From assembly GCA_041946735.1 (NCBI GenBank), contig JBHGAY010000003.1, positions 150,951-214,950 on the forward strand: a stretch of 64,000 nucleotides of DNA, given 5' to 3'. The DNA is from Candidatus Eiseniibacteriota bacterium (lineage in GTDB: Bacteria; Eisenbacteria; RBG-16-71-46; CAIMUX01; VGJL01). Below are positions 3,561 through 39,826 of this stretch, in pieces (positions within the stretch are counted from its first letter, which is position 1; each line of letters opens with the position of its first letter). A model generated the notes under the pieces. That model worked only from the letters and a program-made list of their open reading frames with translations. It had not been told where the DNA came from and searched no databases. The position numbers and the translations under genes were made by a program.

Positions 3561-3594
3561 CAGTGCTCCCCGCTGTCGGTCGCGCTTCCGATTT

Positions 3595-3634: not shown

Positions 3635-3677
3635 TTCCGGATCGCCCGGCCCATTGCCTGACCGAGATCGGCCCTGC

Positions 3678-5990: not shown

Positions 5991-6487
5991 GTCTCTTCTC
6001 CAATCGATCGGCTCCCCGTTTCCGACGGAGGGGCCTTGGTTCGGGAACATCGGATGCGCGCCCTGGCGACCGATCCACATCCCGGTGTGCCTGTCTCCCC
6101 CGCGTTGCCCGGTAGTACGAGCCGGACGGATGCTGTCACCTGGCATCAGGACTGTCAAGCGGATGGGCATCCTCGACGATGGGCTGCGACCGGCGGATCG
6201 AAGCAGCAACCGCGTCCCGGCCTGGTCGTTCGTCGGGAAAGACATGGGCCGAGAAATCATGGAAAGCGTAGCGATGGCGGAGGCTGTTGCAGGCGCGGGC
6301 AGGCGTCTCGCTCACGTTTGGTGTCGACAACCGGCAGGTCCCAAACTAAGATGCTTTACGTTTGGAACGACCGGGGCCCCCGCGAGCTTCGGCTCCGAGA
6401 GCGCTTCCCGCCGACTGCGATTCGTTCGCGTCCCGGTGTAGTCCTGTCGGATGGGCGAGGAGCGAGCTTATTGGAGGGGGGTTCGCA

Positions 6488-7162: not shown

Positions 7163-7768
7163 CTCGGAGCCGGTGGCGCGCGGCGGCCCGCGGCGCCGCC
7201 CCCGATCGATCAGGCGGGCACGGCCCGGTCGAAGGCACCAAGGCGGCGCCGGATGGCCTGGCGGGTACGGACGTGGCGCTCGACTATCTCCTGTGCCGTG
7301 GACATATCCCACCATCTAGGTCCCGCGTTCCTCGATAGGGGAATTTGTGCGCCAATGTTCTGCCTCGTATCCCGCGACCGACCAACCCATCAACCAGCAT
7401 GTTCGGATAGCCCGCGGGGGTCGCGAAGGCGTACAATACGGCGGCACCGATAGAGGCGACATCCTTTCCGTCTGCCAATAGGCGACTTACGAGGAGGGGC
7501 GTCATGGGCCTGATCGGAGGATGGGCTTCCTCTCGCAGTCGCGCTGGCGCATCCTTTGGCCCCGTGCTTCTCCCCGGTCAAGGCCACGAGCCAGCGCGTT
7601 CCTCAGGCTGTTCGGCGTTCTTCCCGAGGCCCCTCGCGGTGGGGATCCCCCGGGTCGCTCCCCTCCCATCCCTGCACGGTGCTCGTCGAAAGGCCCGCGC
7701 GGTCGCCGCTGTCTTCCTTCGGAAGAAACCCCTCCGCCACGAATTTCGAGGACCTAGGAGGTGATTTC

Positions 7769-25618: not shown

Positions 25619-26134
25619 TCAGACTCTTTCGCCGTCAAGCCATGCGGCAACCCGCGCCACCGCCACCGGCACCGCACCTGCCACGGCCGGCGTCAACTCC
25701 TCGCGGATCGTCTCGAGATCGACCGCCTCGGCGACGAGGATTGCGATCTCTTCGGGCATCGTGGCGCCCACATGCCGGCCCAGCTCGAGCGCGGTCGCGA
25801 GGTCGATCGAGTGGGATCCACCCAGTGCGCGCCCCGCGGAGGCCTCTTCGACCCTGAGCGGGAACAGAGCGCCCGGGTGGCGCTGCCCAGTCCGGACGAC
25901 ATCTAGGATCAACACACGCCGGCGGCCCTGGATCAGGTCGAGCAGGTGGAAGCCGGCGACCGAGGCCTCCACGATCTCCACCCCAGGGCGCGCGGCAAGG
26001 CCCGCTGCCTCGCAAGCCCGCGCGACGACCGGCCCGAAGCCATCGTCGCTGATCAGGTCGTTACCGAGGCCGAGAACGAGAACCGGGGCGCGGACCGACT
26101 CGGCCCGAGCCCCGGTCGACGATTCCTCCGCCAT
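25619..26134 (-). CDS. Hydrogenase maturation protease (HybD/HycI family)
   Basis: VLVLGLGNDLISDDGFG, ILDVV and SH motifs; immediately downstream of the large subunit. Confidence 0.93.
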   Translation of the reverse strand: MAEESSTGARAESVRAPVLVLGLGNDLISDDGFGPVVARACEAAGLAARPGVEIVEASVAGFHLLDLIQGRRRVLILDVVRTGQRHPGALFPLRVEEASAGRALGGSHSIDLATALELGRHVGATMPEEIAILVAEAVDLETIREELTPAVAGAVPVAVARVAAWLDGERV

Positions 26135-26135
26135 C

Positions 26136-27617
26136 TCAGCAGAACCGCCGGATCGTCTCGCGCACGTCGCCATCCGGCTCATGGATCACGATCTCCATCG
26201 GCATCTTGCCGGCCGCTGCGTGCGTCGCGCATCCGAAGCAGGGATCGTAGGCGCGGAAGGCCATCTCGACCGTGTTCAGCACCTCGTCGGTGACGGCCGT
26301 CCCCTTCTTGATCAATCCGGCGGCCGCCTTCTTGATCGAGAGCGAGATGCCAGCGTTGTTGTTCGTGGTCCCGACGATCAGGTTCGCCTCCTTGATGTAG
26401 CCCTTCTCGTCGGTCTTGTAGTGGTGTGTGAGGATCCCGCGGGGCGCCTCGACGACGCCGACCCCCTCGCCGACGATCGAGGTCGGCGGCGTGTGGATCC
26501 GGTCGCTCGTGATCTCCTCGTCCTGCGCCCGCTGCGCCACGGCCTCGCACGCGAACACCATCTCGACGACCCGCGCCCAGTGGATCGCGAGGGTGGAGTG
26601 CACCGGCTTCGCCCCGCTGCCGTCGCCGGTAAGCGTCTTGTACAGCTTCTCGTACTCCGCCTGGGCGAGCGGCGTCGCCATCCCGCCGCTCACGTTCAGC
26701 CGGCTCATCGGCGTGGCACGATAGACGCCGGAGTCGCGCCCGTCGACCAGGCCCTTCCATCCCACCTTCCTCAGATACGGGTACTTGAGATAGCTGTAGG
26801 GCAGCACCGCCTCGGCGAGGTGGTCGAGGTACTGCTTCGGCTCGTATTCGGCGAAGAGCTTGCCGTCCGGGTCGACGATCCGCACCTTCCCGTCGTAGAA
26901 GGTGACCTTCCCGTTGTCGTCGACCAGGCCGATCGAGTAGGTCTCGTGCCGGAACATGTCGGAGAGGATCAGGTCGACGTACGCTTTGTTGGCGAGGACG
27001 ATCTGCTCGAAGACCCCGATCGTGGTCTTCGCGAACTCGACCATCTCCCGGCCGATCTGGATCAGCTCCTGCTGCTCCTCCTTCGTCACGCGCTTCGCCA
27101 TCCCACCCGGCAGCGCGGTGACCGGGTGGATCGCCTTGCCGCCGATGATCTGCACGACGCGCTGCCCGCGCGCCCGCTGGCGGATCACCTCGGCCCCCAG
27201 CTCGAGACCGACCTTCGCCACGACGCCGAGAATGTTTCGCTGCGCCTTCGGCGCGCCCGGTCCGACGACGAAGTCGGGACCGCCGAGCGCGTAGAAGTGC
27301 GTGGTGTGATCGCCGGCGTAGAAGCCGTTGTACATCAGCTCGCGCAACTTGCGCGCCGCGCTCGGGATCGTCACGCCGTAGACCGCGTCCGCAGCCTTCA
27401 CCGACGCCATGTGGTGCGCTTCGGGGCAGACGCCGCAGATGCGCGTCGTGATCCGCGGCATCTCCTCGACCGGCCGCCCTCGCGCGAACACCTCGAAGCC
27501 GCGCAGCTCGGGGATCTGCAGGTAAGCGTTCGCCAGCTCCCCATCGTCCCCGACGAACAGGTGGATCTTGCCGTGCCCCTCCAGCCGGGTGATCGGATCG
27601 ATCGTGATCTCGCGCAT
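26136..27617 (-). CDS. mvhA: [NiFe]-hydrogenase large subunit, group 3c (MvhA-like)
   Basis: ITRLEGHG; L1 RICGVC; EAPRG; L2 RAYDPCFGCATH followed by a cleavable C-terminal extension. Confidence 0.95.
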   Translation of the reverse strand: MREITIDPITRLEGHGKIHLFVGDDGELANAYLQIPELRGFEVFARGRPVEEMPRITTRICGVCPEAHHMASVKAADAVYGVTIPSAARKLRELMYNGFYAGDHTTHFYALGGPDFVVGPGAPKAQRNILGVVAKVGLELGAEVIRQRARGQRVVQIIGGKAIHPVTALPGGMAKRVTKEEQQELIQIGREMVEFAKTTIGVFEQIVLANKAYVDLILSDMFRHETYSIGLVDDNGKVTFYDGKVRIVDPDGKLFAEYEPKQYLDHLAEAVLPYSYLKYPYLRKVGWKGLVDGRDSGVYRATPMSRLNVSGGMATPLAQAEYEKLYKTLTGDGSGAKPVHSTLAIHWARVVEMVFACEAVAQRAQDEEITSDRIHTPPTSIVGEGVGVVEAPRGILTHHYKTDEKGYIKEANLIVGTTNNNAGISLSIKKAAAGLIKKGTAVTDEVLNTVEMAFRAYDPCFGCATHAAAGKMPMEIVIHEPDGDVRETIRRFC

Positions 27618-27626
27618 GCTTCTGCC

Positions 27627-28598
27627 CTACCCCTGCCGCCGCCGGAGCGTCGAGCCCGGCAGGCTGAAACGGTAGAAGGTTCCCACCATGTCCGGGATCT
27701 CTCCCACGAGCCGTTCGATCTCGTCGGGATCGTCCACTGCGAGCACGCCAGCCAGCGCCGAAGCCATCTTCGCTCCCTGATCCCGCACGTTCGCCGGCAG
27801 CCCATAGCAGCCGCGGCACGGCATGTTCGCCTTCACGCAGTTCGCGCCGCATCCGGCGCGCGTCGCAGGACCGAGACAGACGATTCCCTGCTCCAGCAGG
27901 CAGATCTCCGGGTCGGCGACGACCTCGTGCGGGCGGACGAACTTCGAGATCTTCTTGATGTCCTTCTTGCGCGTGCACTCCTCGCAGAGCGAGCGGGCGT
28001 CGGCGCCGAGCACCGTCCCCTTGGGCGGGAGCGGCTTGCCGTTCTTCAGGATGTCGACGACCGCGTCGACGACGAGCCCGATCTGATGCGGCTGAGGCGG
28101 GCACCCCGGAACGATGTAGTCCACGTCGACCACCTGCGCGAGCGTCCGCACCGTGTTCCACAGGTGCGGGAGGTGCACTTTGCCTTCCGGGACCTCGCAG
28201 GTCGTCTGCGGCCGCACCTTCTCGGCGTTCACCGTCGAGGGGGAGCCGTCGTAGACGTAGTCGAGGATCTGATCGCGGGTCGTCAGGTTCGCGAGCCCCG
28301 GGATGCCGCCGTCCGAGGCGCACGATCCGAACGCGCAGAGGACGACGGACTTCCGTCTCAGGAGCTGCGCGATCTCGTAGTTCTCGGAGTTCCGGATCGC
28401 GCCGTTCCATAGCGTCAGGGTGATCGAGCCGTCCTCCATCGCGCGCACGTCGTCGTACTTGAAGTCGGTTGCGCAGGGCCAGAAGACGATGTCGAAGAAG
28501 TCGGCGATCTCGAGGACCTTCAGCTCGGTGTCGAGGACGGCGATCTCGCAGCCCCCGCACGAAGCGGCCCAGTAGAGGGCGAGTTTCGGCTTGGCCAT
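27627..28598 (-). CDS. mvhG: [NiFe]-hydrogenase small subunit (MvhG-like)
   Basis: ASCGGCE, FGSCA, PGCPP, CLLEQG.VCLGPATRAGC and PCRGCYG motifs. Confidence 0.95.
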   Translation of the reverse strand: MAKPKLALYWAASCGGCEIAVLDTELKVLEIADFFDIVFWPCATDFKYDDVRAMEDGSITLTLWNGAIRNSENYEIAQLLRRKSVVLCAFGSCASDGGIPGLANLTTRDQILDYVYDGSPSTVNAEKVRPQTTCEVPEGKVHLPHLWNTVRTLAQVVDVDYIVPGCPPQPHQIGLVVDAVVDILKNGKPLPPKGTVLGADARSLCEECTRKKDIKKISKFVRPHEVVADPEICLLEQGIVCLGPATRAGCGANCVKANMPCRGCYGLPANVRDQGAKMASALAGVLAVDDPDEIERLVGEIPDMVGTFYRFSLPGSTLRRRQG

Positions 28599-28619
28599 GC
28601 TTGCTTCCCCCTCTCCCTC

Positions 28620-29126
28620 TCAGGCATGCCCGGCTGGCGCATCGGCGCCGCTGTGCTCGAGCTGCTCTTCGGCCGCCACGCGGTCGAACTCGCGATCCTC
28701 GAGCTTCAGAGGCCCCAGCGCCCGGATCTGCTCGGTGAACTCGGAGATCACCTCGGCGAACCGCGTCGCCTCGGAAGCCGAGACCCATTCGAGACGGATT
28801 CGCCGCGGATCGATCCCCATCTGCTCCGCCAGCTTCTTCGCGACCGGCAGCCGCCGCTGGCATTTGTAGTTCCCCTCGACGTAGTGACAGTCGCCCGGAT
28901 GGCAGCCGCAGACGAGCACGCCGTCGGCGCCCCGCGCGAGAACGTCGAACAGGAAGTTCGGATCGACGCGCCCGGAGCACATCACCCGGACGATCCGCAC
29001 GTTCGGCGGATACTTCATTCGCGCCGTCCCGGCGAGATCGGCTCCGGTGTAGCTGCACCAAGTGCAGAGGAAACCGACCAGATTCGGTTCGAAACCATGC
29101 CGTTCGCTCGTCTTCGTCTCGCTCAT
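28620..29126 (-). CDS. mvhD: Hydrogenase iron-sulfur subunit MvhD/FlpD ([2Fe-2S])
   Basis: ATG 29126 with ATGA overlap; FLCTWCSYTGAD, VMCSGRV and GCHPGDCHY motifs. Confidence 0.95.
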   Translation of the reverse strand: MSETKTSERHGFEPNLVGFLCTWCSYTGADLAGTARMKYPPNVRIVRVMCSGRVDPNFLFDVLARGADGVLVCGCHPGDCHYVEGNYKCQRRLPVAKKLAEQMGIDPRRIRLEWVSASEATRFAEVISEFTEQIRALGPLKLEDREFDRVAAEEQLEHSGADAPAGHA

Positions 29127-30874
29127 GAGAGGATTCCCTCGATCTCCGCGTAGATCTGCTCGTCGGTGAAGTGCAGGCCCTGGATCGCGCCGCTCGGACA
29201 GCCGGCGACGCAGGTCCCGCAGGCCTTGCAGACCGCGGTGGTGACGGCCGACACCTTCTTCTCGGGGTCGTAGGTGATCGCCCCGTAGGGGCAGAGGTCG
29301 TTGCACAATCGGCACCCGCTGCACAGGTTCTCGTCGATCGAGGCGCAGGCCGCGTCCATCTCCACCTCGCCGCGGATGATCAGCGACATCGCCTGCGCCG
29401 CCGCCGCGCCCCCCTGCGCGACCGAGTCGGGAATGTCCTTCGGCCCCTGGCAGACGCCGGCGAGGAAGATCCCGTCGGTCGTCGTGGAGACCGGCCCCAG
29501 CTTCGGGTGACGTTCGATGAACCAGCCGTCCGCGCCGACCGAGATGCCGAAGCGCCTCCCTGTCTCCTTCGCGTCGGCCTGGGCTTCGAGCGCCGTGCAG
29601 AGGATCACCATGTCGACCGGGATCTCCCGGAAGCGGCCGGCCAACGTGTCCTCGCAGCGGACGAGCAGGTGCCCTTCGTCCGTCCCGATCGAACGGACCA
29701 CCTCCGCCCCCTTGCCGCGGATCACGTTCACGCCCTCGGTCAGGATCCGTTGGAAGAACTCCTCGTATCCCTTGCCGAAGGAGCGCATGTCGATGTAGAG
29801 CTGGTACACCTCGGCGGAGGTCTTCTCCTTGACGAGGTGCGCGAACTTCAGCGCGTACATGCAGCAGACACGGCTGCAGTAGGGATGGTGCGCCTCGTCG
29901 CGGCTGCCGATGCAGTGGAGGATCGCGATGGCGCGCGGCTCGCTGCCGTCCTCGAGAACGACCTTGCCATTGGTCGAGCCGGCGGCGTTGTTCATCCTCT
30001 CGAATTCCATCGAGGTGATGACGTTCGGCAGCCGCCCGTAGCCGTACTGCTTGAGCGGCGTCGGATCGAGATCGCGGAAGCCGGTCGCAAGCACGACCGC
30101 CCCGACTTCCACCTCCTCCGTCTCCTCGACCGCCTCGTGATCGATGCATTCCTTCGGGCAGACCTGCGCGCAGACCTTGCATCCTCCGGTGCGGAAGTGG
30201 ACGCAGTACTCCGGCTGGATGTGCGGGACGTTCGGCACCGCCTGCCGGAACGGCACCGAGATTGCCGCGTTCGGCCCGAGATGCACCTCCGGGTGGACGA
30301 TCTCGCGACCCCTCGCCTCCTCCATGCGGATATGGCCGGTCGGACAGAGCGCCGCGCAAGCGCCGCAGAGGATGCAGGCGTCCGAGTCGACGGAGAACGG
30401 CGTCGTCACCGTGCGCTCGGCACCGCGCGAGGCAAAGCCGATCGCCTGCGCGCCGACGATCTCGTCGCAGACGCGCACGCACAGGCCGCACAAGATGCAG
30501 GTGTCCGTGCCCCAGCCCCAGCGCGGCTCCTCGATCCCGAGCTTCTTCCCCAGCTCGAGCAGGATCGGATGCGGCTTGCAGCGAGACATCAGCATCTCGA
30601 GGTTCAACCGGCGCGCCGCGAGAATGCGCGGGGTGTGGGTCAGGATCTCCATCCCGTCAGCGACGGGGAAGTTGCACGCCGTGACGACACGGTTGCGCCC
30701 GCGCTTGTCGAACGTCTCGACGACGCAGATGCGGCAGGCGGCGTACGGCTTGACGTACTTGAAGAAGCAGAGGGTCGGGATCTCGATTCCGAGCTGCTCC
30801 GCAGCCTGGAGGATGTACGTTCCCTCCTCCAGTGTGATCGGGCAGCCATCGATCCGGATCGTCGCCTGGGCCAT
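29123..30874 (-). CDS. hdrA: Fusion of a NuoG/HoxU-like Fe-S domain ([2Fe-2S] plus 2x[4Fe-4S]) with the C-terminal half of HdrA
   Basis: N part: IPTLC...ACRICVVE...TAC, CILCGLCVRVC, CILCGACAALCP. C part: PFRQAVP, C...CKVCAQVCP, VGAVVLATG, HCIGSRD...YCSRVCC, YIDMR, GPKDIPDSVAQG and a terminal 2x[4Fe-4S] ferredoxin. Confidence 0.9.
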   Translation of the reverse strand: MAQATIRIDGCPITLEEGTYILQAAEQLGIEIPTLCFFKYVKPYAACRICVVETFDKRGRNRVVTACNFPVADGMEILTHTPRILAARRLNLEMLMSRCKPHPILLELGKKLGIEEPRWGWGTDTCILCGLCVRVCDEIVGAQAIGFASRGAERTVTTPFSVDSDACILCGACAALCPTGHIRMEEARGREIVHPEVHLGPNAAISVPFRQAVPNVPHIQPEYCVHFRTGGCKVCAQVCPKECIDHEAVEETEEVEVGAVVLATGFRDLDPTPLKQYGYGRLPNVITSMEFERMNNAAGSTNGKVVLEDGSEPRAIAILHCIGSRDEAHHPYCSRVCCMYALKFAHLVKEKTSAEVYQLYIDMRSFGKGYEEFFQRILTEGVNVIRGKGAEVVRSIGTDEGHLLVRCEDTLAGRFREIPVDMVILCTALEAQADAKETGRRFGISVGADGWFIERHPKLGPVSTTTDGIFLAGVCQGPKDIPDSVAQGGAAAAQAMSLIIRGEVEMDAACASIDENLCSGCRLCNDLCPYGAITYDPEKKVSAVTTAVCKACGTCVAGCPSGAIQGLHFTDEQIYAEIEGILS

Positions 30875-30890
30875 CGCTCCTCCTGATCCT

Positions 30891-32930
30891 CTAGACGCTC
30901 ATCGACGCCGCGTCGGCTGCCGCCGACGCCGTTGCCGCCGCCTTGCGCTCCTTGACCGGTACCCACTGCTTGCGCGCGTGGTCTTGGACGATGTCCGCTT
31001 CCATCCGCTTCACGCGCTTGATCGCGTCGAACTTGCACACCTGGTAGCACGCGTCGCACTGAATGCACTTTGCCTGGTCGATCCGGTAGAGCCCCTTCGG
31101 CTCCCCGGAGATCGCCGTGGTCGGGCACGCCGCCACGCACTGGCCGTCTCCGATGCACGCCTCGCTGATCGCGTAACCGACGAGCGCCTTGCAGACGCCG
31201 GCCGGGCACCGCTTGTCGTGGATGTGCGCGTCGAACTCGTCCCGGAAATAACGGATCGTCGACAGTACCGGGTTCGGCGCGCTGCCGCCGAGCTGGCAGA
31301 GACTCGTGTCGATCAGCACGTTCCCGATCTCCTGCAGGGTGTCGATGTCTCCCGGCTCGCCCTCGCCCTGCGTGATCCGCTCGAGGATCGAATGGAGCAT
31401 GCGAAGGCCTTCGCGGCAGGGGAGACACTTCCCGCACGACTCCTCGATGAGGAAGTGGATGAAGTACTTCGCGACATCGACCATGCAGGAGTCCTGGTCC
31501 ATCACGATCATGCCGCCCGATCCCATCATCGAGCCGGCCTTTGTCAGTTCGTCGAAGTCGATCGGGAGATCGAGGAGCGACTCGGCCGCCTCGTCGACGG
31601 CCAGCTCGCCGCTCCGGACCATCGAGCGATGGATCTTCTCGTCGGCGGTCTCTACGATCAGCGTGCCCCCGGAAGGGCCACCGGTCTGGACCGCCTTGAA
31701 CTTCTTCTTTCCGGGGACGCCGCCGCCGATGTCGTGCAGGATCTCGCGGAGGGTGATCCCCATCGGCACCTCGACCAGGCCTGTGTTGTTGATTCTTCCT
31801 GTGAGCGCGAAGAGCTTGGTTCCCTTGGAATTCTCGGTCCCGATCGAGGCGAACCACGCCGAGCCGTTCTCGAGGATCAGCGGGACGTTCGCCCAGGTCT
31901 CGACATTGTTGAGGTTGGAAGGCTTGTCCCAGAGGCCGAACTCGACCGTGTGGACGTACTTCGCGCGCGGTTCCCCGATCTTCCCTTCGAGCGAAGCCAT
32001 CAGTGCGGTCGACTCCCCGCAGACGAACGCTCCGCCGCCCCGGCTGACGTCGATGTCGAAGGCGAAGCCGCTCCCGAAGAGATTGTCACCGAGCAGGCCC
32101 CGGGCCCTCGCCTGCTCCAGCGCAATCCGGAGGTTCTTTACCGCAAGGCGGTACTCATGGCGCACGTACACGTAGCCTCGATGGGAACCGATCGCGAAGG
32201 CGCCGATGATCATGCCCTCGATGACAGAGTGGGGATTCCCCTCCAGAACCGACCGGTCCATGAACGCCCCGGGGTCCCCCTCGTCGGCGTTGCAGATGAC
32301 GTACTTCGGCTCACCCGTCGCGTTGCGGCAAGTCTCCCACTTCTTGCCGGCAGGGAACCCGCCACCCCCGCGCCCGCGCAGACCGGACGCTTTGATCTCC
32401 TCGATCACCATCTCCGGGGACATTGCGGTCAGCGCCTTCGCCGCCGACTGGTAGCCGCCCAGCGCGATGTAGTCGTCGATCGAGTTGGGATCCATCATCC
32501 GATTCTTCCCGAGGATCAGACGCATCTGCTTTTTGTAGAAGGGGATGTCGTCCTCGAGCTCGATGCGCTTCTTCGTCGTCGGATCGCGGTAGAGCAGCTT
32601 GTGGACGATCTGGCCATGCTTGATCGTCTGTTCGAAGATGAGGTCGACATCCGCCGGCTTGATCTGCTGATAGAAGATCCCCTGGGGATGGATGACCGCA
32701 AGCGGCCCGCGCTCGCAGAAGCCGCGACAGCCGGTCAGCTTGAGACCGACCACCTCCTCGAGCTTCTCCTCCGCGATCTTCTTGCGAAACGCGTCCGCCA
32801 CCGCCTGGCAGCCGCACGCGTTGCAGCCGGTGCCTGCGCAGAGGTGGATCGAGAGGCGATTGCGGTCCTTCGCTTCGACCAAACGCGCCTGCAGCGCCTT
32901 GAGATCCTCGGGGCTCTTGATCCTCGTCAT
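30891..32930 (-). CDS. nuoF: NuoF/HydB-like FMN- and NAD(H)-binding flavoprotein subunit
   Basis: N-terminal thioredoxin-like [2Fe-2S] domain; GLRGRGGGGFP, NADEGDPGAFMDR, FVCGESTAL, GGPSGG, ESCGKCLPCREG, HIHDKRCPAGVC; C-terminal ferredoxin. Confidence 0.95.
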   Translation of the reverse strand: MTRIKSPEDLKALQARLVEAKDRNRLSIHLCAGTGCNACGCQAVADAFRKKIAEEKLEEVVGLKLTGCRGFCERGPLAVIHPQGIFYQQIKPADVDLIFEQTIKHGQIVHKLLYRDPTTKKRIELEDDIPFYKKQMRLILGKNRMMDPNSIDDYIALGGYQSAAKALTAMSPEMVIEEIKASGLRGRGGGGFPAGKKWETCRNATGEPKYVICNADEGDPGAFMDRSVLEGNPHSVIEGMIIGAFAIGSHRGYVYVRHEYRLAVKNLRIALEQARARGLLGDNLFGSGFAFDIDVSRGGGAFVCGESTALMASLEGKIGEPRAKYVHTVEFGLWDKPSNLNNVETWANVPLILENGSAWFASIGTENSKGTKLFALTGRINNTGLVEVPMGITLREILHDIGGGVPGKKKFKAVQTGGPSGGTLIVETADEKIHRSMVRSGELAVDEAAESLLDLPIDFDELTKAGSMMGSGGMIVMDQDSCMVDVAKYFIHFLIEESCGKCLPCREGLRMLHSILERITQGEGEPGDIDTLQEIGNVLIDTSLCQLGGSAPNPVLSTIRYFRDEFDAHIHDKRCPAGVCKALVGYAISEACIGDGQCVAACPTTAISGEPKGLYRIDQAKCIQCDACYQVCKFDAIKRVKRMEADIVQDHARKQWVPVKERKAAATASAAADAASMSV

Positions 32931-32946
32931 CGTCCCTCCGGCTCCT

Positions 32947-33528
32947 TCAGGAGCGGCCTTCGGCCGCGGTGGTCGCGTGCTCCGTGCCCGCCTGTTCGGG
33001 CCTCTCCGTGTCGGCGGGGGCCGCCGAGCCGGTCGCTCCGGCGGCCCTGTCGTCCTCGCGGATCGCGGCGAGCATTTTGTCGACGTCCGACACGGTCAGA
33101 TGGCCCCAGTACTTCTCGTCGGCGACGACGACCGGCCCGAGCGCGCAGGCGCCCACGCAGTTCACCGTCTCGAGCGTGAACATACCGTCCTTCGTCGTGT
33201 GGCCGCGGTCGACGTGGAGGTCGCGCTCGAGCTTCTCCACGATGCTGCGGGAGTTGCGAACATGGCAGGCGGTCCCGGTGCAGACGCATACGTGGTGCTT
33301 CCCACGCGGCTCGAGGCTGAATGCCTTGTAGAAGGTAGCTACCCCGTAGACCTGGGAGAGGGCGAGATCCATCCGTTTGCTGATCTGCTTCATCGCCTCC
33401 CGGGGGAGGTAATAGAACTCCTGCTGGACCTCCTGCAGGATCATGATCAGCGCGGTCGGCTTCGCCTCGTAGGAGGCGATGATCTCGTCGATCCGTTCGG
33501 ACATCCGATCCTGGGATTCCATCGGCAT
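32947..33528 (-). CDS. nuoE: NuoE/HydC-like [2Fe-2S] subunit
   Basis: YGVATFY, VCTGTACH and NCVGACALGP motifs. Confidence 0.95.
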   Translation of the reverse strand: MPMESQDRMSERIDEIIASYEAKPTALIMILQEVQQEFYYLPREAMKQISKRMDLALSQVYGVATFYKAFSLEPRGKHHVCVCTGTACHVRNSRSIVEKLERDLHVDRGHTTKDGMFTLETVNCVGACALGPVVVADEKYWGHLTVSDVDKMLAAIREDDRAAGATGSAAPADTERPEQAGTEHATTAAEGRS

Positions 33529-34545
33529 CTAGTCCTCCCTCACGCGCACGCCGGTGCGGCTGACGCGCGCCTCGTGCTTCTGTTCGGGGGCGAGAACGCG
33601 CGGGCTTCCTTCGCGATAGACGCGATCGCCGATCAGCATCCGACGCTGCGTCGGAAACGGGCGCGACGGGCAGGCCTCATAGCAGGTGCCGCAGCTGTTG
33701 CACTTGGTGACGTCGACGTAGCGCGGGTGCTTCTTGATCTTGACCTTGAAGTTGCCGACGTACCCCTCGACCTCCTGCACCTCCGCCATCGTCATGAGGC
33801 GGATGTTCGGGTGCTGCGCCACGGCCACCATCTTCGGCGTGAGGATGCAGGCGGCGCAGTCGAGGGTCGGGAAGGTCTTGTCGAAGTTCGCCATGTGTCC
33901 GCCGATCGAGGACTCCCGCTCGACGAGGATCACCTGGAGCCCCGCATCGGCGAGCTGAAGGGCGGTCTCGATTCCCGCGATCCCGCCACCAACGACGAGC
34001 GCGCGCGGCGTGATGTTCACGTGGCGCATCTCGAGCGGGGCGTGGAACGCGACGCGGCGGATCGCGGCGCGGATCTGCGCCGCCGCCTTGTCGGTCGCCG
34101 CGCCTCCATCGATCGTGACCCACGACACCTGCTCGCGAATGTTCGCCATGGCGAATAGGTAGCGGTTCAGACCGGCCTTCGCGACCGCCTTCCGGAACGT
34201 CGGCTCGTGCATCAACGGGCTGCACGCGGCGACGACGACCCGGTCGAGCTGCATCTCCCGGATGTCCTTCTGGATCAGCTCCTGCCCCGGGTCGCTGCAC
34301 ATGAATTTGTAGTCCCGCGAGACGACGACGTGCGGCTCGCTCTTCATCCGCCGCGCGACCTCGGCGACGTCGACGGTCTTCGCGATGTTCGTTCCGCAGT
34401 GGCAGACGTAGACGCCGATGCGCAGGGGACGGGACGGTGCGCGATCTCCGTTGCCGTTGCCGCTTCCCTTCCCGTTGCCGTTCCCGTTCCCTGCGTCGCC
34501 CGCACCGCCGCGTCCGTCCTGGGCGTTGCCGCTTTCGGGTGTCAT
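33529..34545 (-). CDS. hdrA: N-terminal half of heterodisulfide reductase subunit A (split HdrA)
   Basis: ATG 34545 overlaps the hdrB stop; IGVYVCHCGTNIA, AACSP, ANIRE, GGGIAG, FDKTFPTLDC and PRYVD..KCNSCGTCYEACP, then stop after about 45 aa. Confidence 0.92.
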   Translation of the reverse strand: MTPESGNAQDGRGGAGDAGNGNGNGKGSGNGNGDRAPSRPLRIGVYVCHCGTNIAKTVDVAEVARRMKSEPHVVVSRDYKFMCSDPGQELIQKDIREMQLDRVVVAACSPLMHEPTFRKAVAKAGLNRYLFAMANIREQVSWVTIDGGAATDKAAAQIRAAIRRVAFHAPLEMRHVNITPRALVVGGGIAGIETALQLADAGLQVILVERESSIGGHMANFDKTFPTLDCAACILTPKMVAVAQHPNIRLMTMAEVQEVEGYVGNFKVKIKKHPRYVDVTKCNSCGTCYEACPSRPFPTQRRMLIGDRVYREGSPRVLAPEQKHEARVSRTGVRVRED

Positions 34546-35420
34546 GCCGGCACCTCGCTCAGGCGACTGACGATCCGCCTGACATCGATCACCATCTGGT
34601 CGAGGAGCATCTCCTCCGCCGTGAAGCCGAGAGCGAGGCCGAGGAGCTGCGTGAAATAGACGATCGGAAGCCGGTAGGACGTCCCGAAGACCTTGTTGAT
34701 CTTCTGCTGGTACGCCTCGAGGTTCATCTGGCACATGGGGCAGGTGGTGATCAGAACTTCCGCGTCGCTCTGTACCGCCGCCTCGAGGATCTCCCGATTC
34801 AGCTTCAGCGCGACATCCTCGTAGGTCGTCATGAGCATCCCGCCGCAGCATCGAAGCTTTGCGCTGAACGGGACGACAGCGCCACCAATGGCGGCCATGA
34901 GATTGTCGAGCTGCTGCGGGTCCTCGCGATCGTCGAACCTTCCATAGGGACGGACGAGCTGGCATCCGTAATAGGGCGCGATGCGCACGCCGGTCAGCGG
35001 CCGGACGACCTTCTCGACGATCCTCTCGATGCCGTAGAAATCGACCAGGATCCCGAGGGGATGGAGCACCTCGATCGATGCCTTGTAGGAGAGCCCCACG
35101 GAGGAGAGCACCTCGTTGATCTTGTCCGCGTGCTCCTCGCCCCAGCGCATGTGCCGGTTCACCTTCGAGAGGATCGTGTAGCAGGAGCTGCAAGGGGCGC
35201 AGACGTTCATCCCCATCTTCTCGGCGTTCGCGAGGTTCCGCGCGCAGATCGAGTAGGCGGCGAGCTTGTTCATGGAGATGTAGGAGGTTGCGCCGCAGCA
35301 GTTCCAGTCGTCGATCTCGGTCAGGCCGATCCCGAGCTTCTGGAAGACGCGCCGCACCGAGACGTCATAGGGCCGGCCGGTTGCCTCGAGACTGCAGCCG
35401 GGGTAGTAGGCATATTCCAT
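34542..35420 (-). CDS. hdrB: Heterodisulfide reductase subunit B (two CCG domains)
   Basis: YYPGC, WNCCG, PCSSC, YYGC, RCCG and TCPMC motifs. Confidence 0.95.
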   Translation of the reverse strand: MEYAYYPGCSLEATGRPYDVSVRRVFQKLGIGLTEIDDWNCCGATSYISMNKLAAYSICARNLANAEKMGMNVCAPCSSCYTILSKVNRHMRWGEEHADKINEVLSSVGLSYKASIEVLHPLGILVDFYGIERIVEKVVRPLTGVRIAPYYGCQLVRPYGRFDDREDPQQLDNLMAAIGGAVVPFSAKLRCCGGMLMTTYEDVALKLNREILEAAVQSDAEVLITTCPMCQMNLEAYQQKINKVFGTSYRLPIVYFTQLLGLALGFTAEEMLLDQMVIDVRRIVSRLSEVPA

Positions 35421-35421
35421 C

Positions 35422-36018
35422 TCAGTTGTCTCCCAGCGATTCGGCTTTCTTCATGATCGCCCTCACCTCGTCGACGCGACGGATCGCCTTCGGTCTCGTC
35501 GCGAGGCGGTGGCGCCGCAACATCGTGATCGCGAAGCGTTGCAGGTCGGGGGAGAGAAGCTTCCGTGGTCCTGCCTCCAGGTAGTAGCGGAGTCCGAGCC
35601 ACAGCTCCCAGTTGCGGCCGAAGCGGCGGATGTTGCCGACGAACGCTTCGGAGAGCGCGTGCGCAGGAAATGTCCGCGGAAAGACCCCCTTCTGGGCAGC
35701 CACGCGCTTCAGCGCATAGAGGTTGTCGGTCACCCGGATCCCGACGGGGCAGCGGACGGTGCAGGCGTAGCACGACGCGCAGATCCAGATCGCGCGGCTG
35801 CGCAGGATCGGCTCGAGCATGCCGGCCCGGAACAGGGCGACGATCTGCCGCGGGGTGATATCCATCGCATGGGCGACCGGGCAGGACCCCGTGCAGCTCC
35901 CGCATTGGATGCAGTTCTTGACCTTGTATCCGTCAGGGAAGGTCGCGACCTGTTCGAGATAGGCGGCACGTAGGTCCGCTTCCTTCGGAGGGATGGCGGC
36001 AAGGGCGGCGTTGGGCAT
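35422..36018 (-). CDS. hdrC: Heterodisulfide reductase subunit C (2x[4Fe-4S])
   Basis: CIQCGSCTGSCP and IWICASCYACTVRCP motifs; GGAGG RBS before ATG 36018. Confidence 0.93.
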   Translation of the reverse strand: MPNAALAAIPPKEADLRAAYLEQVATFPDGYKVKNCIQCGSCTGSCPVAHAMDITPRQIVALFRAGMLEPILRSRAIWICASCYACTVRCPVGIRVTDNLYALKRVAAQKGVFPRTFPAHALSEAFVGNIRRFGRNWELWLGLRYYLEAGPRKLLSPDLQRFAITMLRRHRLATRPKAIRRVDEVRAIMKKAESLGDN

Positions 36019-36091
36019 CCTGCCTCCACGTTCTGCGCCCTGTGCGATCACGCAGCCTGTCCGGTCGGGCGCGATCCGGTGGCCGGCTGAC

Positions 36092-36109: not shown

Positions 36110-36124
36110 GCAGGATCGGAGCCA
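36109..36124 (-). promoter_or_regulatory. Putative sigma-54 (-24/-12) promoter of the hdr-nuo-mvh operon
   Basis: Minus strand TGGCTCCGATCCTGCA has GG-N10-GC spacing and resembles TGGCAC-N5-TTGCW; oriented toward hdrC. Confidence 0.5.
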
Positions 36125-36371: not shown

Positions 36372-36587
36372 ATGCGCAAGCAAGCCAAGAGAGGGTTACT
36401 CGAGGGTACCGAGCGCTGTCCGCACTGCCTGCAACTCCACGTCCTCGAGCAGGAGTACCGCTGCGTCCTCTGCGACGGGCCGGTCTGTCCCTTCTGTGTC
36501 GTGATCGAGGAGGGCGCCCAGGACATCCTCTGCCCGAGCTGCAGCGACGCCGAGCGACGAGGAAGAGGAAAGCCGCATGCCGGCTAG
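36372..36587 (+). CDS. Small zinc-finger protein with four CxxC motifs
   Basis: AAGGAG RBS; CPHC, CVLC, CPFC and CPSC in 71 aa; overlaps the start of ku1. Confidence 0.72.
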   Translation: MRKQAKRGLLEGTERCPHCLQLHVLEQEYRCVLCDGPVCPFCVVIEEGAQDILCPSCSDAERRGRGKPHAG

Positions 36588-37356
36588 AGCGATCTGGAAG
36601 GGTGTGCTCGCGCTCGGCGACGACATCGAGCTGCCGGTCAAGCTCTACTCCGCGGTGCAGGACCGCACGGTCCACTTCCGTCTTCTCGATTCGAAGGACC
36701 GCCAGCCGGTCGCTCAGGAGATGGTCGAGCCAGAGACGGAAGAGGAGGTCGCTGCCAAGGAGATCCGGAAGGGGGCCGAAGTCGAGCCGGGCGTGTTCGT
36801 TCTCCTGAAGGACGACGAGGTCGAGAAGCTCGAGCCGCCCGCCTCGCGAATCATCCAGATCGAGCGGTTTCTCAACGCCGGAGAGATCTCCCATCTATGG
36901 TACGAGCGGCCCTACTACCTCGGTCCGGACGAAGGGGGCGATCGGGAGTACTGGGACTTCGTCGAGGCGTTGGAGCGGACGGAGAAGGAGGGAGTCGCAC
37001 GCTGGGTCATGCGGAAGAGACGCTATCTGGGCTCGCTCAAGGCGATCGATGGTTTCCTGATGCTGATCACCCTTCGGTTCGCGGACGAGGTCATCACAGC
37101 GGAAGATCTTACCCCCCCACCCGGTCGCGATCTGGACGCCAAGGAGGTGACCATGGCGCGCCGGCTCGTGGAGGCGATGGCTGGGGAGTTCGACCCCGGG
37201 GAGTTTCATGACGAGTTCCGCGCACGGGTCCTCGAGCTGATCGAGGCAAAGAAGAAGGGAAAGAAGATCCGCGCGAGAAAGCCCGAGCGCAAGCCGCGCC
37301 CCGAGTCGCTGGCGGGCGCTCTGCAGGCGAGCCTGGCGGCGGCGAGGAAGCGATGA
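36577..37356 (+). CDS. ku: Non-homologous end-joining protein Ku (copy 1)
   Basis: RAIWKG, PVKLYSA, IRKGAEV, YERPYYLGP and TLRFADEV motifs. Confidence 0.92.
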   Translation: MPARAIWKGVLALGDDIELPVKLYSAVQDRTVHFRLLDSKDRQPVAQEMVEPETEEEVAAKEIRKGAEVEPGVFVLLKDDEVEKLEPPASRIIQIERFLNAGEISHLWYERPYYLGPDEGGDREYWDFVEALERTEKEGVARWVMRKRRYLGSLKAIDGFLMLITLRFADEVITAEDLTPPPGRDLDAKEVTMARRLVEAMAGEFDPGEFHDEFRARVLELIEAKKKGKKIRARKPERKPRPESLAGALQASLAAARKR

Positions 37357-37399: not shown

Positions 37400-38437
37400 A
37401 TGCCGGCGAAGAGAGCGCAATCGAAGACGGGAAGAGACGCGGGCGCCGCCCGGGCGTCGCGCGCGAGAGCGAAGAGCAAGCCGGCGCGTGCTCGCAAGAC
37501 AACAGCGAGTCGTGCCGGTTCGCGGCGCGATCCCGAGAGGCTGCGCAAGCCGCCGCGCCGGGCCGGCAAGTCGTCCCGGGAGACAACGGCATCGAAGGCG
37601 GCGGCGGGAGTCGACCGGGCCGCCGCTGTTCGCCTCGACGAAAATCCGGAGGAGTCGACGGCGCCGCGGCCGATCTGGTCCGGGGCGATCAGCTTCGGCC
37701 TGGTCAACGTCCCGGTGAACCTGTTCCCGGCATTGCGCCCTCACGGCGTGCACCTGCGCATGCTCGATCCCTCCGGGACGCCACTCAATCGCCGCTACGT
37801 CTCCTCGAACAGTGGCGAGCCGATCGATCCGGATCATATCGTGAGGGGCTACGAGGTCGAGAAGGGGAAGTTCGTGCTCGTCAGCGACGAGGAGCTCGAG
37901 GCTCTCGAGCCGCAGCGATCGCGCGAGATCGATCTCCGCCGCTTCGTCGACGTCTCGACGATCCCGCCCTACTACTTCGAGCGTCCGTACTTCCTGACTC
38001 CGGCCGGCCGCAGCAACAAGGCGTACCGCCTCCTTGCGGCGGTGATGGAGAAGGAGGGAAAGGCAGGCCTCGCCACCTTCGTGATGCGGGAGAAGGAGTA
38101 TCTCGTCGCGATCCTCTCGGACGGCGGGATCCTGCGCGCTCAGACGCTGCGTTTCGCGGACGAGATCCGCCGCCCGCAGGATGTTGGCCTTCCGGAGCGG
38201 AAGCCGGCGCGGGCGAAGCAGGTCGCGAAGATCGGAAAGACGATCCGCGACCGCACGAAGTCGCGACTTGCCCGGGAGGATCTGGGCGACGACGTCACCG
38301 CCAAGCTCGAGAAGCTGATCGAGAAGAAGGTCGCACAGGGACGCGACATCGTGACGCTCGAGGCGACACCGGAGTCGAAGGCGGAGTTCGTCGATCTGAT
38401 GGAGGTCCTGAAGCAGCGGATGCGGGGAGCGGCGTGA
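37400..38437 (+). CDS. ku: Ku protein (copy 2) with basic N-terminal extension
   Basis: RPIWSGAISFGLVNVPVNL, IVRGYEV, YFERPYFL, AYRLL and TLRFADEIR motifs; first about 85 aa are K/R/A-rich. Confidence 0.92.
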   Translation: MPAKRAQSKTGRDAGAARASRARAKSKPARARKTTASRAGSRRDPERLRKPPRRAGKSSRETTASKAAAGVDRAAAVRLDENPEESTAPRPIWSGAISFGLVNVPVNLFPALRPHGVHLRMLDPSGTPLNRRYVSSNSGEPIDPDHIVRGYEVEKGKFVLVSDEELEALEPQRSREIDLRRFVDVSTIPPYYFERPYFLTPAGRSNKAYRLLAAVMEKEGKAGLATFVMREKEYLVAILSDGGILRAQTLRFADEIRRPQDVGLPERKPARAKQVAKIGKTIRDRTKSRLAREDLGDDVTAKLEKLIEKKVAQGRDIVTLEATPESKAEFVDLMEVLKQRMRGAA

Positions 38438-38440
38438 GGC

Positions 38441-39826
38441 TCATCGCAAGCGGTAGCCTCGAATCTTCCGCCAGAGCGTCTTCCTGTCGATCCCAAGCAG
38501 CGCCGAGGCGCGCCCGAGACGCCAGCCCGTCAAGTCCAGCACCTTGAGGATGTGCTGCGACTCGAGGGTGGCCAGCCGCAGATCGCTCGCGTCCCCGCCG
38601 TCCGTCTCGGTGGCCGGCGCCCCTCCCCGCATGAAGTGGAGATCCTCCGATCGGATCTCCGGCCCCTGGGCGAGCACGAGGGCACGCTCGAGCGTGTTCT
38701 CCAGCTCTCGAACGTTGCCGGGCCAGTTGTAGGCCTGCAACGTTTCGATGCACTCCGCCGACAGTCGTTTCAGCTCGAGCAGTTTGCGCTCGCACAACCG
38801 CCGGACGAGAACCGTAGCTAGGGACGGAATGTCTTCTCGCCGGTCGCGCAACGGCGGCACCTCGATCAGCACCACGCTCAGCCGGTAGAACAGATCCTCG
38901 CGAAAGCCGCCGGCGGCCATCGCCGCGCGCAGATCGCGGTTCGTCGCGGCGAGAATCCGCACGTCGACATGCACCGGCTCGCTCCCCCCCACCTTCGTGA
39001 CCTCGCGCTCCTGGATCACCCGCAGGAGCTTCGTCTGGATCGTGGGCGTGAGGTTGCCGATCTCGTCGAGGAAGATGGTCCCGCCATGCGCCAGCTCGAA
39101 ACGGCCGGGACGTGTCGACACGGCTCCCGTGAAGGAGCCGCGGACATGGCCGAACAGCTCGCTCTCGAAGAGCGTCTCGACGATCGCGCCGCAATCGACC
39201 GTCAGGAACGGCTTCTCGCGCCGCGCGCTCGCCCGATGGATGGAGCGCGCCACCAGCTCCTTGCCCGTTCCGCTCTCGCCGAGGATCAGGACGGTGGCGT
39301 CGGTCTGCGCGACGCGCTCGACCCATCCTCGGAGCTGCTCGATCGCTCGGCTCTCGCCGGTCAAGACCTCGGCATGCGCTTCCTCGCGGATTTGCTCCTT
39401 GAGCGCCCGGTTCTCGAGCGAGAGCGCCCGCTTCTCCAGCGCCCGGCCGACCACGAGCCGGAGGGAGTCGGCGTCGAACGGCTTCGGCAGGTAGTCGTAC
39501 GCTCCGAGGCGCATGCACTCCACCGCCGATCCGACGCTCGAATATCCCGTGATGACGATGACGTCGAGGTCGGGAGCGTCGCGATGGAGCCGTTCGAGCA
39601 GCGTCATTCCGTCCATGCCCGGCATCTTCAGATCGAGGAGGACGAGATCGAGCCGGTCGTGCTGGACCTTGCGCAATGCTTCGAGGCCGTCGCGCGCCGT
39701 CTCGACCCTGTAGTTCGAGCGTTCCAGCGCCTGCCGGCAGGAATCCCGGATCCCCTCTTCGTCGTCGACGACGAGGATCGTTCGCTGCGGCTCCATTCCT
39801 CCTCCTTCGGGTAGCCGAGCGCTCAT
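38441..39826 (-). CDS. Sigma-54-dependent response regulator (NtrC family)
   Basis: Receiver domain (LVVDDE, LLDLKMP), GESGTGKE, ESELFGH..GSFTGA, FLDEI, WPGNVREL and a Fis-type HTH. Confidence 0.96.
   Translation of the reverse strand: MSARLPEGGGMEPQRTILVVDDEEGIRDSCRQALERSNYRVETARDGLEALRKVQHDRLDLVLLDLKMPGMDGMTLLERLHRDAPDLDVIVITGYSSVGSAVECMRLGAYDYLPKPFDADSLRLVVGRALEKRALSLENRALKEQIREEAHAEVLTGESRAIEQLRGWVERVAQTDATVLILGESGTGKELVARSIHRASARREKPFLTVDCGAIVETLFESELFGHVRGSFTGAVSTRPGRFELAHGGTIFLDEIGNLTPTIQTKLLRVIQEREVTKVGGSEPVHVDVRILAATNRDLRAAMAAGGFREDLFYRLSVVLIEVPPLRDRREDIPSLATVLVRRLCERKLLELKRLSAECIETLQAYNWPGNVRELENTLERALVLAQGPEIRSEDLHFMRGGAPATETDGGDASDLRLATLESQHILKVLDLTGWRLGRASALLGIDRKTLWRKIRGYRLR

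Follow-up and report, generated by a model that had tools for sequence, protein, structure and literature searches.

A split hdrA gene enclosing a HydBC/Bfu-like NuoE-NuoF module in a group 3c hydrogenase operon of Candidatus Eiseniibacteriota

The window analysed here, a 64,000-nucleotide stretch of contig JBHGAY010000003.1 from a Candidatus Eiseniibacteriota bacterium, carries on its minus strand a tight operon of ten genes (25619-36051) that overlap or are separated by gaps of at most about 20 nucleotides. The order is hdrC, hdrB, the N-terminal half of hdrA (HdrA-N), nuoE, nuoF, a fusion gene, mvhD, mvhG, mvhA and hycI. The hdrA gene is present as two pieces, the second of them fused behind an iron-sulphur domain, and the Pfam matches and coordinates bear out the observation of an earlier note, made from the bare sequence, that nuoE and nuoF lie in the gap between them. 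The genes and the matches behind their assignment (E, expect value) are as follows.

35422-36051, minus strand: hdrC, 209 residues, 2x[4Fe-4S] subunit (Pfam Fer4_8/Fer4_17)
34542-35420, minus strand: hdrB, 292 residues, two CCG domains, the disulfide-reducing site (Pfam CCG, two stretches, E 2.3e-24)
33529-34545, minus strand: hdrA N half, 338 residues (5odc_A, HdrA2 profile)
32947-33528, minus strand: nuoE/hydC/bfuC-like [2Fe-2S] subunit, 193 residues (Pfam 2Fe-2S_thioredx, positions 1-144 of 145, E 2.5e-51)
30891-32930, minus strand: nuoF/hydB/bfuB-like subunit for flavin mononucleotide (FMN) and nicotinamide adenine dinucleotide (NAD(H)), 679 residues (Pfam Complex1_51K, NADH_4Fe-4S, 2Fe-2S_thioredx, Fer4)
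29123-30874, minus strand: fusion gene, whole, 583 residues
30305-30874, minus strand: fusion residues 1-190, BfuA/HydA-N-type domain (Pfam Fer2_4, Fer4_7; 9mqx_A)
29123-30304, minus strand: fusion gene, hdrA C half (8rvu_a, HdrA2 profile 262-640, invariant Cys)
28620-29126, minus strand: mvhD, [2Fe-2S] adaptor between hydrogenase and HdrA, 168 residues (Pfam FlpD, positions 2-123 of 123, E 3.4e-55)
27627-28598, minus strand: mvhG, [NiFe]-hydrogenase small subunit, 323 residues (Pfam Oxidored_q6; NCBIfam VhuG, E 3.9e-61, under cut-off)
26136-27617, minus strand: mvhA, [NiFe]-hydrogenase large subunit, 493 residues (Pfam NiFeSe_Hases; NCBIfam VhuA, E 2.7e-118, under equivalog cut-off)
25619-26182, minus strand: hycI-type hydrogenase maturation protease (Pfam HycI, E 7.6e-14)

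The top NCBIfam match of HdrC is the CoB-CoM heterodisulfide reductase subunit C, under its curated cut-off; HdrB matches the NCBIfam HdrB family TIGR03288 with E 3.4e-59, also under cut-off, and the top family of MvhD is VhuD. None of the operon proteins, HdrB and HdrC included, reaches an NCBIfam equivalog cut-off, and they are therefore relatives, not orthologues, of the methanogen enzymes. MvhA carries ICGVCPEAH and AYDPCFGCATH, the signature of group 3c, which fits the L1 and L2 motifs given for MvhA (ICGxCxxxH and AYDPCccCATH; PMC6085437). The AOR family has no Pfam match among the ten proteins. The junctions proved as tight as the earlier note had described them: ATGA overlaps at hdrB/hdrA-N and fusion/mvhD, a stop codon that abuts the next start directly at hdrA-N/nuoE, and 16-nucleotide gaps at both nuoE/nuoF and nuoF/fusion.

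The genome is a draft (4.89 Mb in 72 contigs, 94.8% complete), which would fit a reading of this layout as an assembly or binning artefact. That reading is refuted by contigs from an independent-study run (X2): a 4813-nucleotide contig covers 28900-32223 with 0 differences and another covers 33417-33883 with 1 difference, so that the mvhD/fusion, nuoF/fusion and hdrA-N/nuoE junctions and the domain junction near 30300 are all bridged. Read support at 33529 and about 30300 had been singled out earlier as a check, and no misassembly is found at either place. The same gene order moreover recurs in 30 loci from separate assemblies, and we give an artefact next to no credence.

The two pieces were mapped onto solved HdrA structures. 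HdrA-N residues 42-308 align to residues 5-271 of HdrA 5odc_A (E 2.1e-99), and the piece comprises the N-terminal cluster domain, the binding loop for flavin adenine dinucleotide (FAD), a DCAAC sequence, a first Cys motif (motif 1, C282-P293) and a 45-residue tail. It holds GGGIAG, DKTFPTLDCAAC and one single CNSCGTCYEACP motif; translation and alignment place all of these where they had been reported. The accompanying claim that the chain stops right after the motif did not survive, as the tail follows; its first ~15 residues align to HdrA's own linker, and its length and sequence vary among homologues. The fusion resumes HdrA where the N half ends, as had been proposed, with its residues 157-582 aligned to residues 244-653 of HdrA 8rvu_a (E 1.1e-111). 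The NCBIfam HdrA2 profile, a model of 777 positions that includes a fused MvhD, is tiled without overlap by HdrA-N (1-255), the fusion (262-640) and MvhD (643-775). Thus the two HdrA halves are complementary and non-redundant, and a phmmer overlap of both on HdrA 239-271 is a generic ferredoxin-motif match. Mapping of the breakpoint on methanogen HdrA, a check suggested earlier, puts it inside the inserted ferredoxin domain, between its two Cys motifs: motif 1 (CxxCxxCxxxCP) lies in HdrA-N and motif 2 (C224, C232, C235 and C239) in the fusion. The FAD fold itself is also cut, with the GxGxxG loop in HdrA-N and the remainder in the fusion; judged by sequence, neither half alone would be a complete flavoprotein.

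The ligands expected of an intact HdrA are retained across both chains, and the loss of essential FAD or cluster ligands, which would have spoken against complementary halves, was not seen. HdrA-N homologues are 55-70% identical, and their cluster and FAD motifs, among them C282, C285, C288, C292, P293 and the DCAAC Cys residues, are invariant in 22 of 22 sequences. Motif 2, CSRVCC and the Cys residues of the C-terminal ferredoxin domain of the fusion are likewise invariant in all 26 homologues aligned. By counting on the 5odc_A alignment, the second Cys of DCAAC is the counterpart of Cys197, which ligates the partner's cluster in the methanogen HdrA dimer (PMC9012536). The unsplit hdrA genes of five Chloroflexota metagenome-assembled genomes (MAGs; L064, L049, L040, L021 and L022) have an in-frame TGA at this second Cys of DCxxC (DCSA*IL), which likely encodes selenocysteine at the position where the window has Cys. 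Residues 1-40 of HdrA-N (34426-34545) form a Gly/Asn-rich low-complexity extension (GNGNGNGKGSGNGNG) that is absent or different in 21 aligned homologues.

A model of the complex between the fusion and HdrA-N residues 40-338, with NuoE and NuoF outside it, reached a score of 0.81 in three runs; the best of 3 controls scored 0.00. The 0.81 mark is reached by 116 of 157 solved complexes and by 2 of 215 mismatched pairs. Between runs, at least 93% of contacts agree, and the predicted local distance difference test value of the partner is at least 86. Of the multimer modelling called for by the earlier note, the part with the two HdrA halves, a pair that resembles solved HdrA, gave a pass. The modelled contacts join HdrA-N 281-306 and 310-318 with fusion 162-175, 181-190 and 211-246; around motif 1, HdrA-N 281-318 is placed in contact with the motif-2 segment of the fusion (211-246) as well as with the last cluster segment of its BfuA-type domain (162-190). 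The model supports an association of the two HdrA halves. The physical cut in hdrA and the variable HdrA-N tail could instead be taken as signs of a decaying gene, or of two unrelated enzymes with interleaved genes, HdrA-N being a remnant and the fusion working with NuoEF and Mvh alone. This is very improbable given the conservation of HdrA-N, its presence in every one of the 27 split loci that no contig end truncates, the lack of an FAD-binding loop in the fusion, the pass of the complex model, and the existence of both a covalent HdrA-N::NuoE chain (L066) and a single-chain form (L038), described below.

The fusion opens with an iron-sulphur domain that directly precedes motif 2. Residues 6-185 match residues 7-186 of the 247-residue BfuA of Wor-Bfu (9mqx_A, E 3.8e-33) and also the N terminus of HydA (8a6t_A); Pfam places Fer2_4 at residues 5-81, Fer4_7 at residues 125-180, and further Fer4 families. 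Its 12 Cys residues, assigned to a [2Fe-2S] cluster (C36, C47, C50 and C67) and 2x[4Fe-4S] clusters (C126-C136 and C167-C177), are invariant in 26 of 26 homologues. The earlier note had seen a NuoG/HoxU-like domain here. Its [2Fe-2S] plus 2x[4Fe-4S] composition stands, and the NuoG/HoxU label needs a small correction: the His-ligated cluster of NuoG/HoxU is absent, and the HydA N terminus and type-2 BfuA are nearer. The BfuA-type unit is here joined to HdrA-C in one chain and is no separate subunit.

NuoF has two extra domains, an N-terminal thioredoxin-like [2Fe-2S] domain (residues 20-101) and C-terminal 2x[4Fe-4S] clusters (Fer4, residues 589-638). Its best full-length match in the Protein Data Bank is HydB (8a6t_B, E 3.2e-223), with 7t2r_B and 9mqx_B at E 1.4e-221, and complex I Nqo1 matches residues 150-420 only. 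According to Schut 2022 (PMC9304861), the extra [2Fe-2S] and 2x[4Fe-4S] clusters separate bifurcating Bfu cores from non-bifurcating NuoF homologues. The extra clusters and the full-length HydB match argue that NuoE and NuoF should be of the HydBC/Bfu bifurcating type, handling both NAD(H) and ferredoxin, and not a plain diaphorase. Of the 'NAD(H) diaphorase cassette' proposed earlier, the NAD(H) module in the gap is thereby retained and the plain diaphorase is not.

One residue sets this NuoF apart. Asp595 (window 31146-31148) turns the first Cys motif of the C-terminal ferredoxin domain into CxxDxxCxxxCP; the position is Cys in 24 of 29 aligned homologues and a gap in 4, with Asp in the window only, and the other NuoF cluster Cys residues are conserved across the 29 sequences. 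The codon is covered by the independent X2 contig with 0 differences. In BamH/HydB the corresponding cluster is one of two that exchange electrons with external ferredoxin (bioRxiv 10.64898/2026.04.10.717634), and the substitution points to a cluster that is Asp-ligated or of the [3Fe-4S] type where NuoF faces ferredoxin.

Asp595 is one reason to consider that the same ten proteins form an NAD-linked hydrogenase/disulfide reductase, Hox-like in function, in which NuoEF is a simple non-bifurcating NAD(H) diaphorase and either NAD+ is the sole acceptor of HdrA's low-potential electrons or NADH serves as a second donor. With nuoE-nuoF-nuoG(N)...small-large subunit, the gene order is reminiscent of hoxEFUYH, the top NCBIfam match of NuoE is HoxE/NuoE, and HoxU matches the fusion N domain with E 1e-32. 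However, NuoF keeps the N-terminal [2Fe-2S] and C-terminal 2x[4Fe-4S] clusters that non-bifurcating homologues lack in the account of Schut 2022 (PMC9304861), its best full-length matches are bifurcating HydB-type subunits, Asp595 occurs in none of the 28 other aligned homologues, and the hydrogenase is Vhu/Mvh-like, not Hox-like. We regard the diaphorase function as unlikely, though it deserves to be kept in mind.

The search for the same gene order in other genomes, also suggested by the earlier note, showed that other genomes share the layout. With one genome scanned per species, 80 related loci came up; the window proteins were mapped in them by tblastn, and 86 copies of HdrA-C were classed by upstream content: 30 are split with nuoF and the fused N domain, 45 are unsplit, 4 are of the HdrL type, 2 have a partial N domain only, and 5 lie at a contig edge. 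NuoF followed by the fusion was thus found in 30 of the 80 loci. The hdrA-N gene lies upstream in 27 of these 30, the remaining 3 being cut by contig ends, and mvh genes follow directly downstream in 22. All split loci come from MAGs, and at least 11 phylum-level labels appear in their record titles: Zixibacteria, Ignavibacteriota, GN15, Calditrichota, Verrucomicrobiota, Acidobacteriota, Armatimonadota, Aminicenantes, Bacillota, Chloroflexota and Planctomycetota. In the protein database, the matches listed for the fusion include at least 120 clusters of ~585 residues at 63-82% identity (the window's own at 100%), and nearly all of these carry the 2Fe-2S family PF13510, the noted exceptions P0024 and P0071 being shortened. 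Among the best 150 representatives at 50% identity, 3 are collinear over fusion residues 4-582, and 9 more cover ~1-500.

Several variants inform the order of the parts. The nuoE gene directly follows hdrA-N, as in the window, in 14 of the 27 loci, and a gap of 3.2-3.9 kb separates them in the other 13. In L012, the one gapped locus whose gap content was read, the gap (3763-7234) holds two HATPase genes, a HydS-like [FeFe]-hydrogenase homologue (Fe_hyd_lg_C and PF04060) and a PHP-domain gene. These genes look like a sensory/regulatory set inside the split, and they suggest that the cassette came from a hydCBA-type operon. In L066 (6789-8090, a Phycisphaerae MAG) HdrA-N runs in frame into NuoE within a single open frame of 434 residues, which links the modules covalently. 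In L038 (2820-5153, a Syntrophobacteraceae MAG) one HdrA of 777 residues consists of HdrA-N, tail, an extra 2x[4Fe-4S] domain and HdrA-C; the extra domain sits between the two motifs and resembles fusion residues 125-190 without the [2Fe-2S] part, and no nuoEF lies nearby. By its sequence, L038 is a natural covalent version of the split protein, and it establishes that the extra domain comes after motif 1 and before motif 2. In L020, L034, L035 and the second NuoF of L031, a GltD/NfnB-like end (CGRVCHHPCE...) replaces the 2x[4Fe-4S] ferredoxin domain of NuoF, which hints at NADP(H)-linked versions of the cassette.

To follow the history of the split, a quick maximum-likelihood tree was built from 87 rows of the HdrA C half. 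The window falls in an all-split clade of 10 rows (Shimodaira-Hasegawa-like approximate likelihood ratio test, SH-aLRT, 98), itself part of a larger clade with 19 split and 4 HdrL-type rows (SH-aLRT 96); elsewhere on the tree, split forms sit among unsplit ones, such as L026 and L031 within Dehalococcoidia. A single origin of the split was rejected: a tree constrained to group all 31 split rows apart from the 49 unsplit and HdrL rows is worse by 304.5 log-likelihood units (approximately unbiased test, p 3e-81; the classes were fixed before tree building and the test was run after inspection of the tree). That the split forms are not one clade argues that the split state was gained, lost or moved by recombination several times. 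The earlier proposal that a three-gene cassette was inserted into hdrA and retained is accordingly kept as to the insert inside hdrA and its retention, and abandoned as to one insertion event.

The four HdrL-type loci inside the clade of split forms (L068, L069, L071 and L077) share the insertion site, the inserted ferredoxin domain, and the added function, a link to pyridine nucleotides. HdrL is one chain of 1144 residues with in-frame Fer4_20 and Pyr_redox_2 (L068), whereas the window has three genes of an unrelated FMN family and a host gene that is cut; Pfam finds Fer4_20 and Pyr_redox_2 in neither HdrA piece of the window, in keeping with the earlier statement that the layout differs from HdrL fusions. 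The HdrA of ANME-1 likewise has an NfnB-like NAD(P)H domain in its inserted ferredoxin domain (PMC9012536). The inserted ferredoxin domain thus appears to behave as a socket into which either a Bfu cassette or an NfnB-like domain can fit.

By sequence, the nearest known family is MvhAGD-HdrABC of hydrogenotrophic methanogens (5ODC, 8RVU/8RVV, 7BKB and 9SFI) with unsplit bacterial hdrCBA-mvhDGA loci such as L021, L041 and L046, which have the same subunits in the same order; the unsplit relatives from bacteria share 54-61% identity with the window over the C half of HdrA. The operon retains the HdrA ligands, the CCG domains and the L1/L2 motifs of group 3c, and the MvhD adaptor, a two-CCG HdrB and a 2x[4Fe-4S] HdrC are present (FlpD, CCG and Fer4_8). 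In contrast to that family, HdrA is two chains and not one four-domain chain with a free inserted ferredoxin domain, and where methanogen HdrA gives electrons to free ferredoxin, the operon has a BfuA-type domain, NuoE and NuoF. With the Bfu/HydABC enzymes (T. kivui 8A6T, A. mobile NiFe-HydABCSL 7T2R/7T30 and Wor-Bfu 9MQX) the likeness is equally specific: NuoF and NuoE match BfuB and BfuC over their full length, the BfuB set of an FMN/NAD(H) core, an N3-type [4Fe-4S] cluster and the two extra cluster domains is present save for Asp595 in place of one Cys, and the [2Fe-2S] subunit BfuC has its counterpart. The fusion N domain matches the 247-residue type-2 BfuA of Wor-Bfu, yet unlike there it forms the start of half an HdrA and does not stand as a subunit of its own, and the 'third substrate' of this Bfu-type module would be another bifurcating flavoprotein. 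An Hdr/Mvh class of Bfu enzymes is not named in the part of the main text of Schut 2022 considered here (PMC9304861). HoxEFUYH (group 3d) also has E, F and U-like diaphorase genes followed by small and large subunits, with HoxE and HoxU among the NCBIfam matches; unlike HoxEFUYH, the operon has Vhu/Mvh-like large and small subunits, HdrA-C and MvhD before the hydrogenase, and HdrBC. The FlxABCD-HdrABC system of sulfate reducers is an NAD(H)-linked Hdr in which Flx is attached by an MvhD-like donor-side adaptor and makes use of an FNR-type flavoprotein; it is not known to have NuoEF, a split hdrA or a hydrogenase. The present operon resembles it in linking Hdr to NAD(H) and differs in all three of those features. 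No description or biochemical study of a split hdrA with nuoEF in the gap was found in the full-text searches made, although Supplementary Table 1 of PMC9304861 (Bfu clades) could list it.

Taken together, the ten genes probably encode one soluble enzyme made of MvhAG, MvhD, a two-chain HdrA, HdrBC and a HydBC/Bfu-type module of NuoE and NuoF; the membership of NuoEF in one complex, the way electrons run through it, its stoichiometry and its disulfide substrate are what we infer. In this enzyme HdrA-N and the fusion would fold together into an HdrA-like flavoprotein whose inserted ferredoxin domain is built from two chains, motif 1 from HdrA-N and motif 2 from the fusion, and the BfuA-type domain fused directly before motif 2 would be an iron-sulphur wire from the inserted ferredoxin domain to NuoF/NuoE. 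H2 would be oxidised at MvhA and the electrons passed through MvhD to the HdrA FAD. In characterised HdrA-type enzymes, this FAD sends a high-potential electron to HdrBC (BamD) and a low-potential electron through the N-terminal cluster and the inserted ferredoxin domain (PMC9012536; bioRxiv 10.64898/2026.04.10.717634). MvhDGA and HdrBC are unchanged in the operon, and the new iron-sulphur domain is attached at the inserted ferredoxin domain. The HdrA FAD would accordingly bifurcate, with one electron reducing a disulfide through HdrBC and the low-potential electron entering the Bfu module instead of free ferredoxin, to be distributed to NAD+ and ferredoxin; two bifurcation sites would act in series, Hdr and then Bfu. 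The idea of an NAD(H) branch grafted onto the inserted ferredoxin domain, put forward in the earlier note, draws support from the breakpoint map, the invariant Cys residues, the 30 of 80 loci, L038 and the complex model.

The nearest relative in concept is class II benzoyl-CoA reductase (BCRII), the Bam[(BC)2DEFGHI]2 complex of Geobacter metallireducens, which joins the HydBC-type BamGHI to the HdrA-type BamE/BamF/BamD (bioRxiv 10.64898/2026.04.10.717634) and is named Bam-Bfu in PMC9304861. It is the only characterised enzyme we found that couples HydBC-type and HdrA-type modules in one complex, and two distinct bifurcation modules in one oxidoreductase supercomplex were unreported before it by that preprint's own account (bioRxiv 10.64898/2026.04.10.717634). 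In BCRII the HydBC module is the input, BamI feeding the C-terminal ferredoxin-like domain and the MvhD-like BamF, and the inserted ferredoxin domain feeds the tungsten enzyme (same preprint). Here, in contrast, the hydrogenase would be on the input side and the Bfu module on the inserted-ferredoxin, or output, side; there is no tungsten subunit, and BamE is a fused HdrA dimer and not a split HdrA. A possible reading, to which we give somewhat less than an even chance, is H2-driven two-stage bifurcation with the module order of BCRII reversed and the cassette exchanged at the HdrA socket across at least 11 phylum labels. With the same reserve, HdrA's low-potential electrons would never be released to free ferredoxin, and the enzyme would be a second, independent stacking of two bifurcation families.

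The same complex might instead run mainly in reverse, with NuoEF confurcating NADH and reduced ferredoxin, the electrons passing via HdrA to Mvh for fermentative H2 evolution and HdrBC being regulatory or a side branch. Carriers of the split include, by their record titles, fermentative lineages such as Ignavibacteria, Calditrichota and Aminicenantes, and pyruvate:ferredoxin oxidoreductase homologues occur in the genome. The 13 loci with a 3.2-3.9 kb gap also bear on this, as the gap of L012 holds a HydS-like homologue with kinase and PHP genes. Such a combination is the typical set of fermentative HydABC operons. In BCRII, furthermore, a HydBC-type module is the confurcating input (bioRxiv 10.64898/2026.04.10.717634). 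Set against this, the Bfu wire is attached to the inserted ferredoxin domain, on the low-potential side of the FAD, and not to the MvhD/C-terminal entry used by BamGHI in BCRII, a reversed HdrA flavin would presumably require HdrBC to oxidise thiols, thermodynamically a poor basis for forming H2, and the genome has a separate FeFe hydrogenase locus with NuoF. We consider H2 evolution by this enzyme improbable.

Several observations weigh against the series scheme itself, from H2 through HdrA to the Bfu module. The pass of the complex model may reflect likeness to solved HdrA more than proof of binding. Starting from H2, two bifurcations in series save less energy for each disulfide than the canonical enzyme does. 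Asp595 sits in the ferredoxin-facing cluster of NuoF, and coupling to ferredoxin may be changed in this enzyme. Mvh genes are missing beside eight of the 30 split loci, so H2 is not always the partner. Besides the split operon, the genome has the FeFe hydrogenase locus, which is separate and includes a NuoF, and a second hdr cluster in which hdrA is unsplit; this redundancy points to no specific role for the split operon.

That second cluster lies on contig C5 (L081, C5:1-14000, ~105-6765, minus strand) and comprises hdrC, hdrB, an unsplit hdrA of 667 residues that is 57% identical to HdrA-N, an MvhD-ferredoxin fusion of 417 residues and a NAD_binding_1/DHODB_Fe-S (FNR-type) protein of 411 residues; by its gene content it looks like FlxABCD-HdrABC. 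The genome further has a second [NiFe] hydrogenase, [FeFe] hydrogenase homologues, one of them close to a NuoF of its own, five NuoF homologues in total, and four heme-copper oxidase matches beside the pyruvate:ferredoxin oxidoreductase homologues. A DsrC-family gene (L082, C31:20000-32000, 4682-5164, plus strand; Pfam E 2e-34) lies ~1.6 kb upstream of a CCG-domain match (C31:26804-27070) within an open frame of 752 residues, and its product is a possible thiol/disulfide partner for the Hdr-type enzymes of this genome. The organism seems to be a facultative anaerobe that has several bifurcating systems, and the split operon is not its only Hdr.

Electron bifurcation is the route by which anaerobes obtain low-potential reductant without ATP cost, and the layout described here is a new, widespread wiring variant of known module types, found in many uncultured lineages of soil, sediment and subsurface. 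If the proposed scheme is right, it would be the second case of two bifurcation modules in one enzyme, in the opposite wiring order and with a hydrogenase attached, and a natural experiment on coupling the low-potential branch of HdrA to a protein partner. The inserted ferredoxin domain would then be a modular socket, plain in canonical HdrA, filled by an NfnB-type insert in HdrL and by a Bfu-type module here. Genome surveys now score such loci as plain 'group 3c MvhADG/HdrABC', and the H2 metabolism of their carriers would read differently. In the Caldithrix abyssi genome paper, hdr genes adjoin a group 3c hydrogenase of unknown function (Cabys_1914-1916, with the hdr genes upstream), and the paper reports the same neighbourhood of hdr and a group 3c hydrogenase for Thermoanaerobaculum aquaticum (PMC5317091).

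The surroundings of the operon offer some minor observations. At window positions 36110-36124 (minus strand), ~60 nucleotides upstream of the hdrC start, TGGCTCCGATCCTGC has the GG-N10-GC spacing of a sigma-54 promoter; the pattern TGGCACN5TTGC with at most 2 mismatches has 38 matches in the window against 39.5 expected, which is chance level. Upstream of the operon on the minus strand lie genes for a sigma-54-dependent response regulator (38441-39826) and a histidine kinase (39823-40893). Between them and the operon, tandem Ku-domain genes (36577-37356 and 37400-38437, plus strand) are divergent from the operon.

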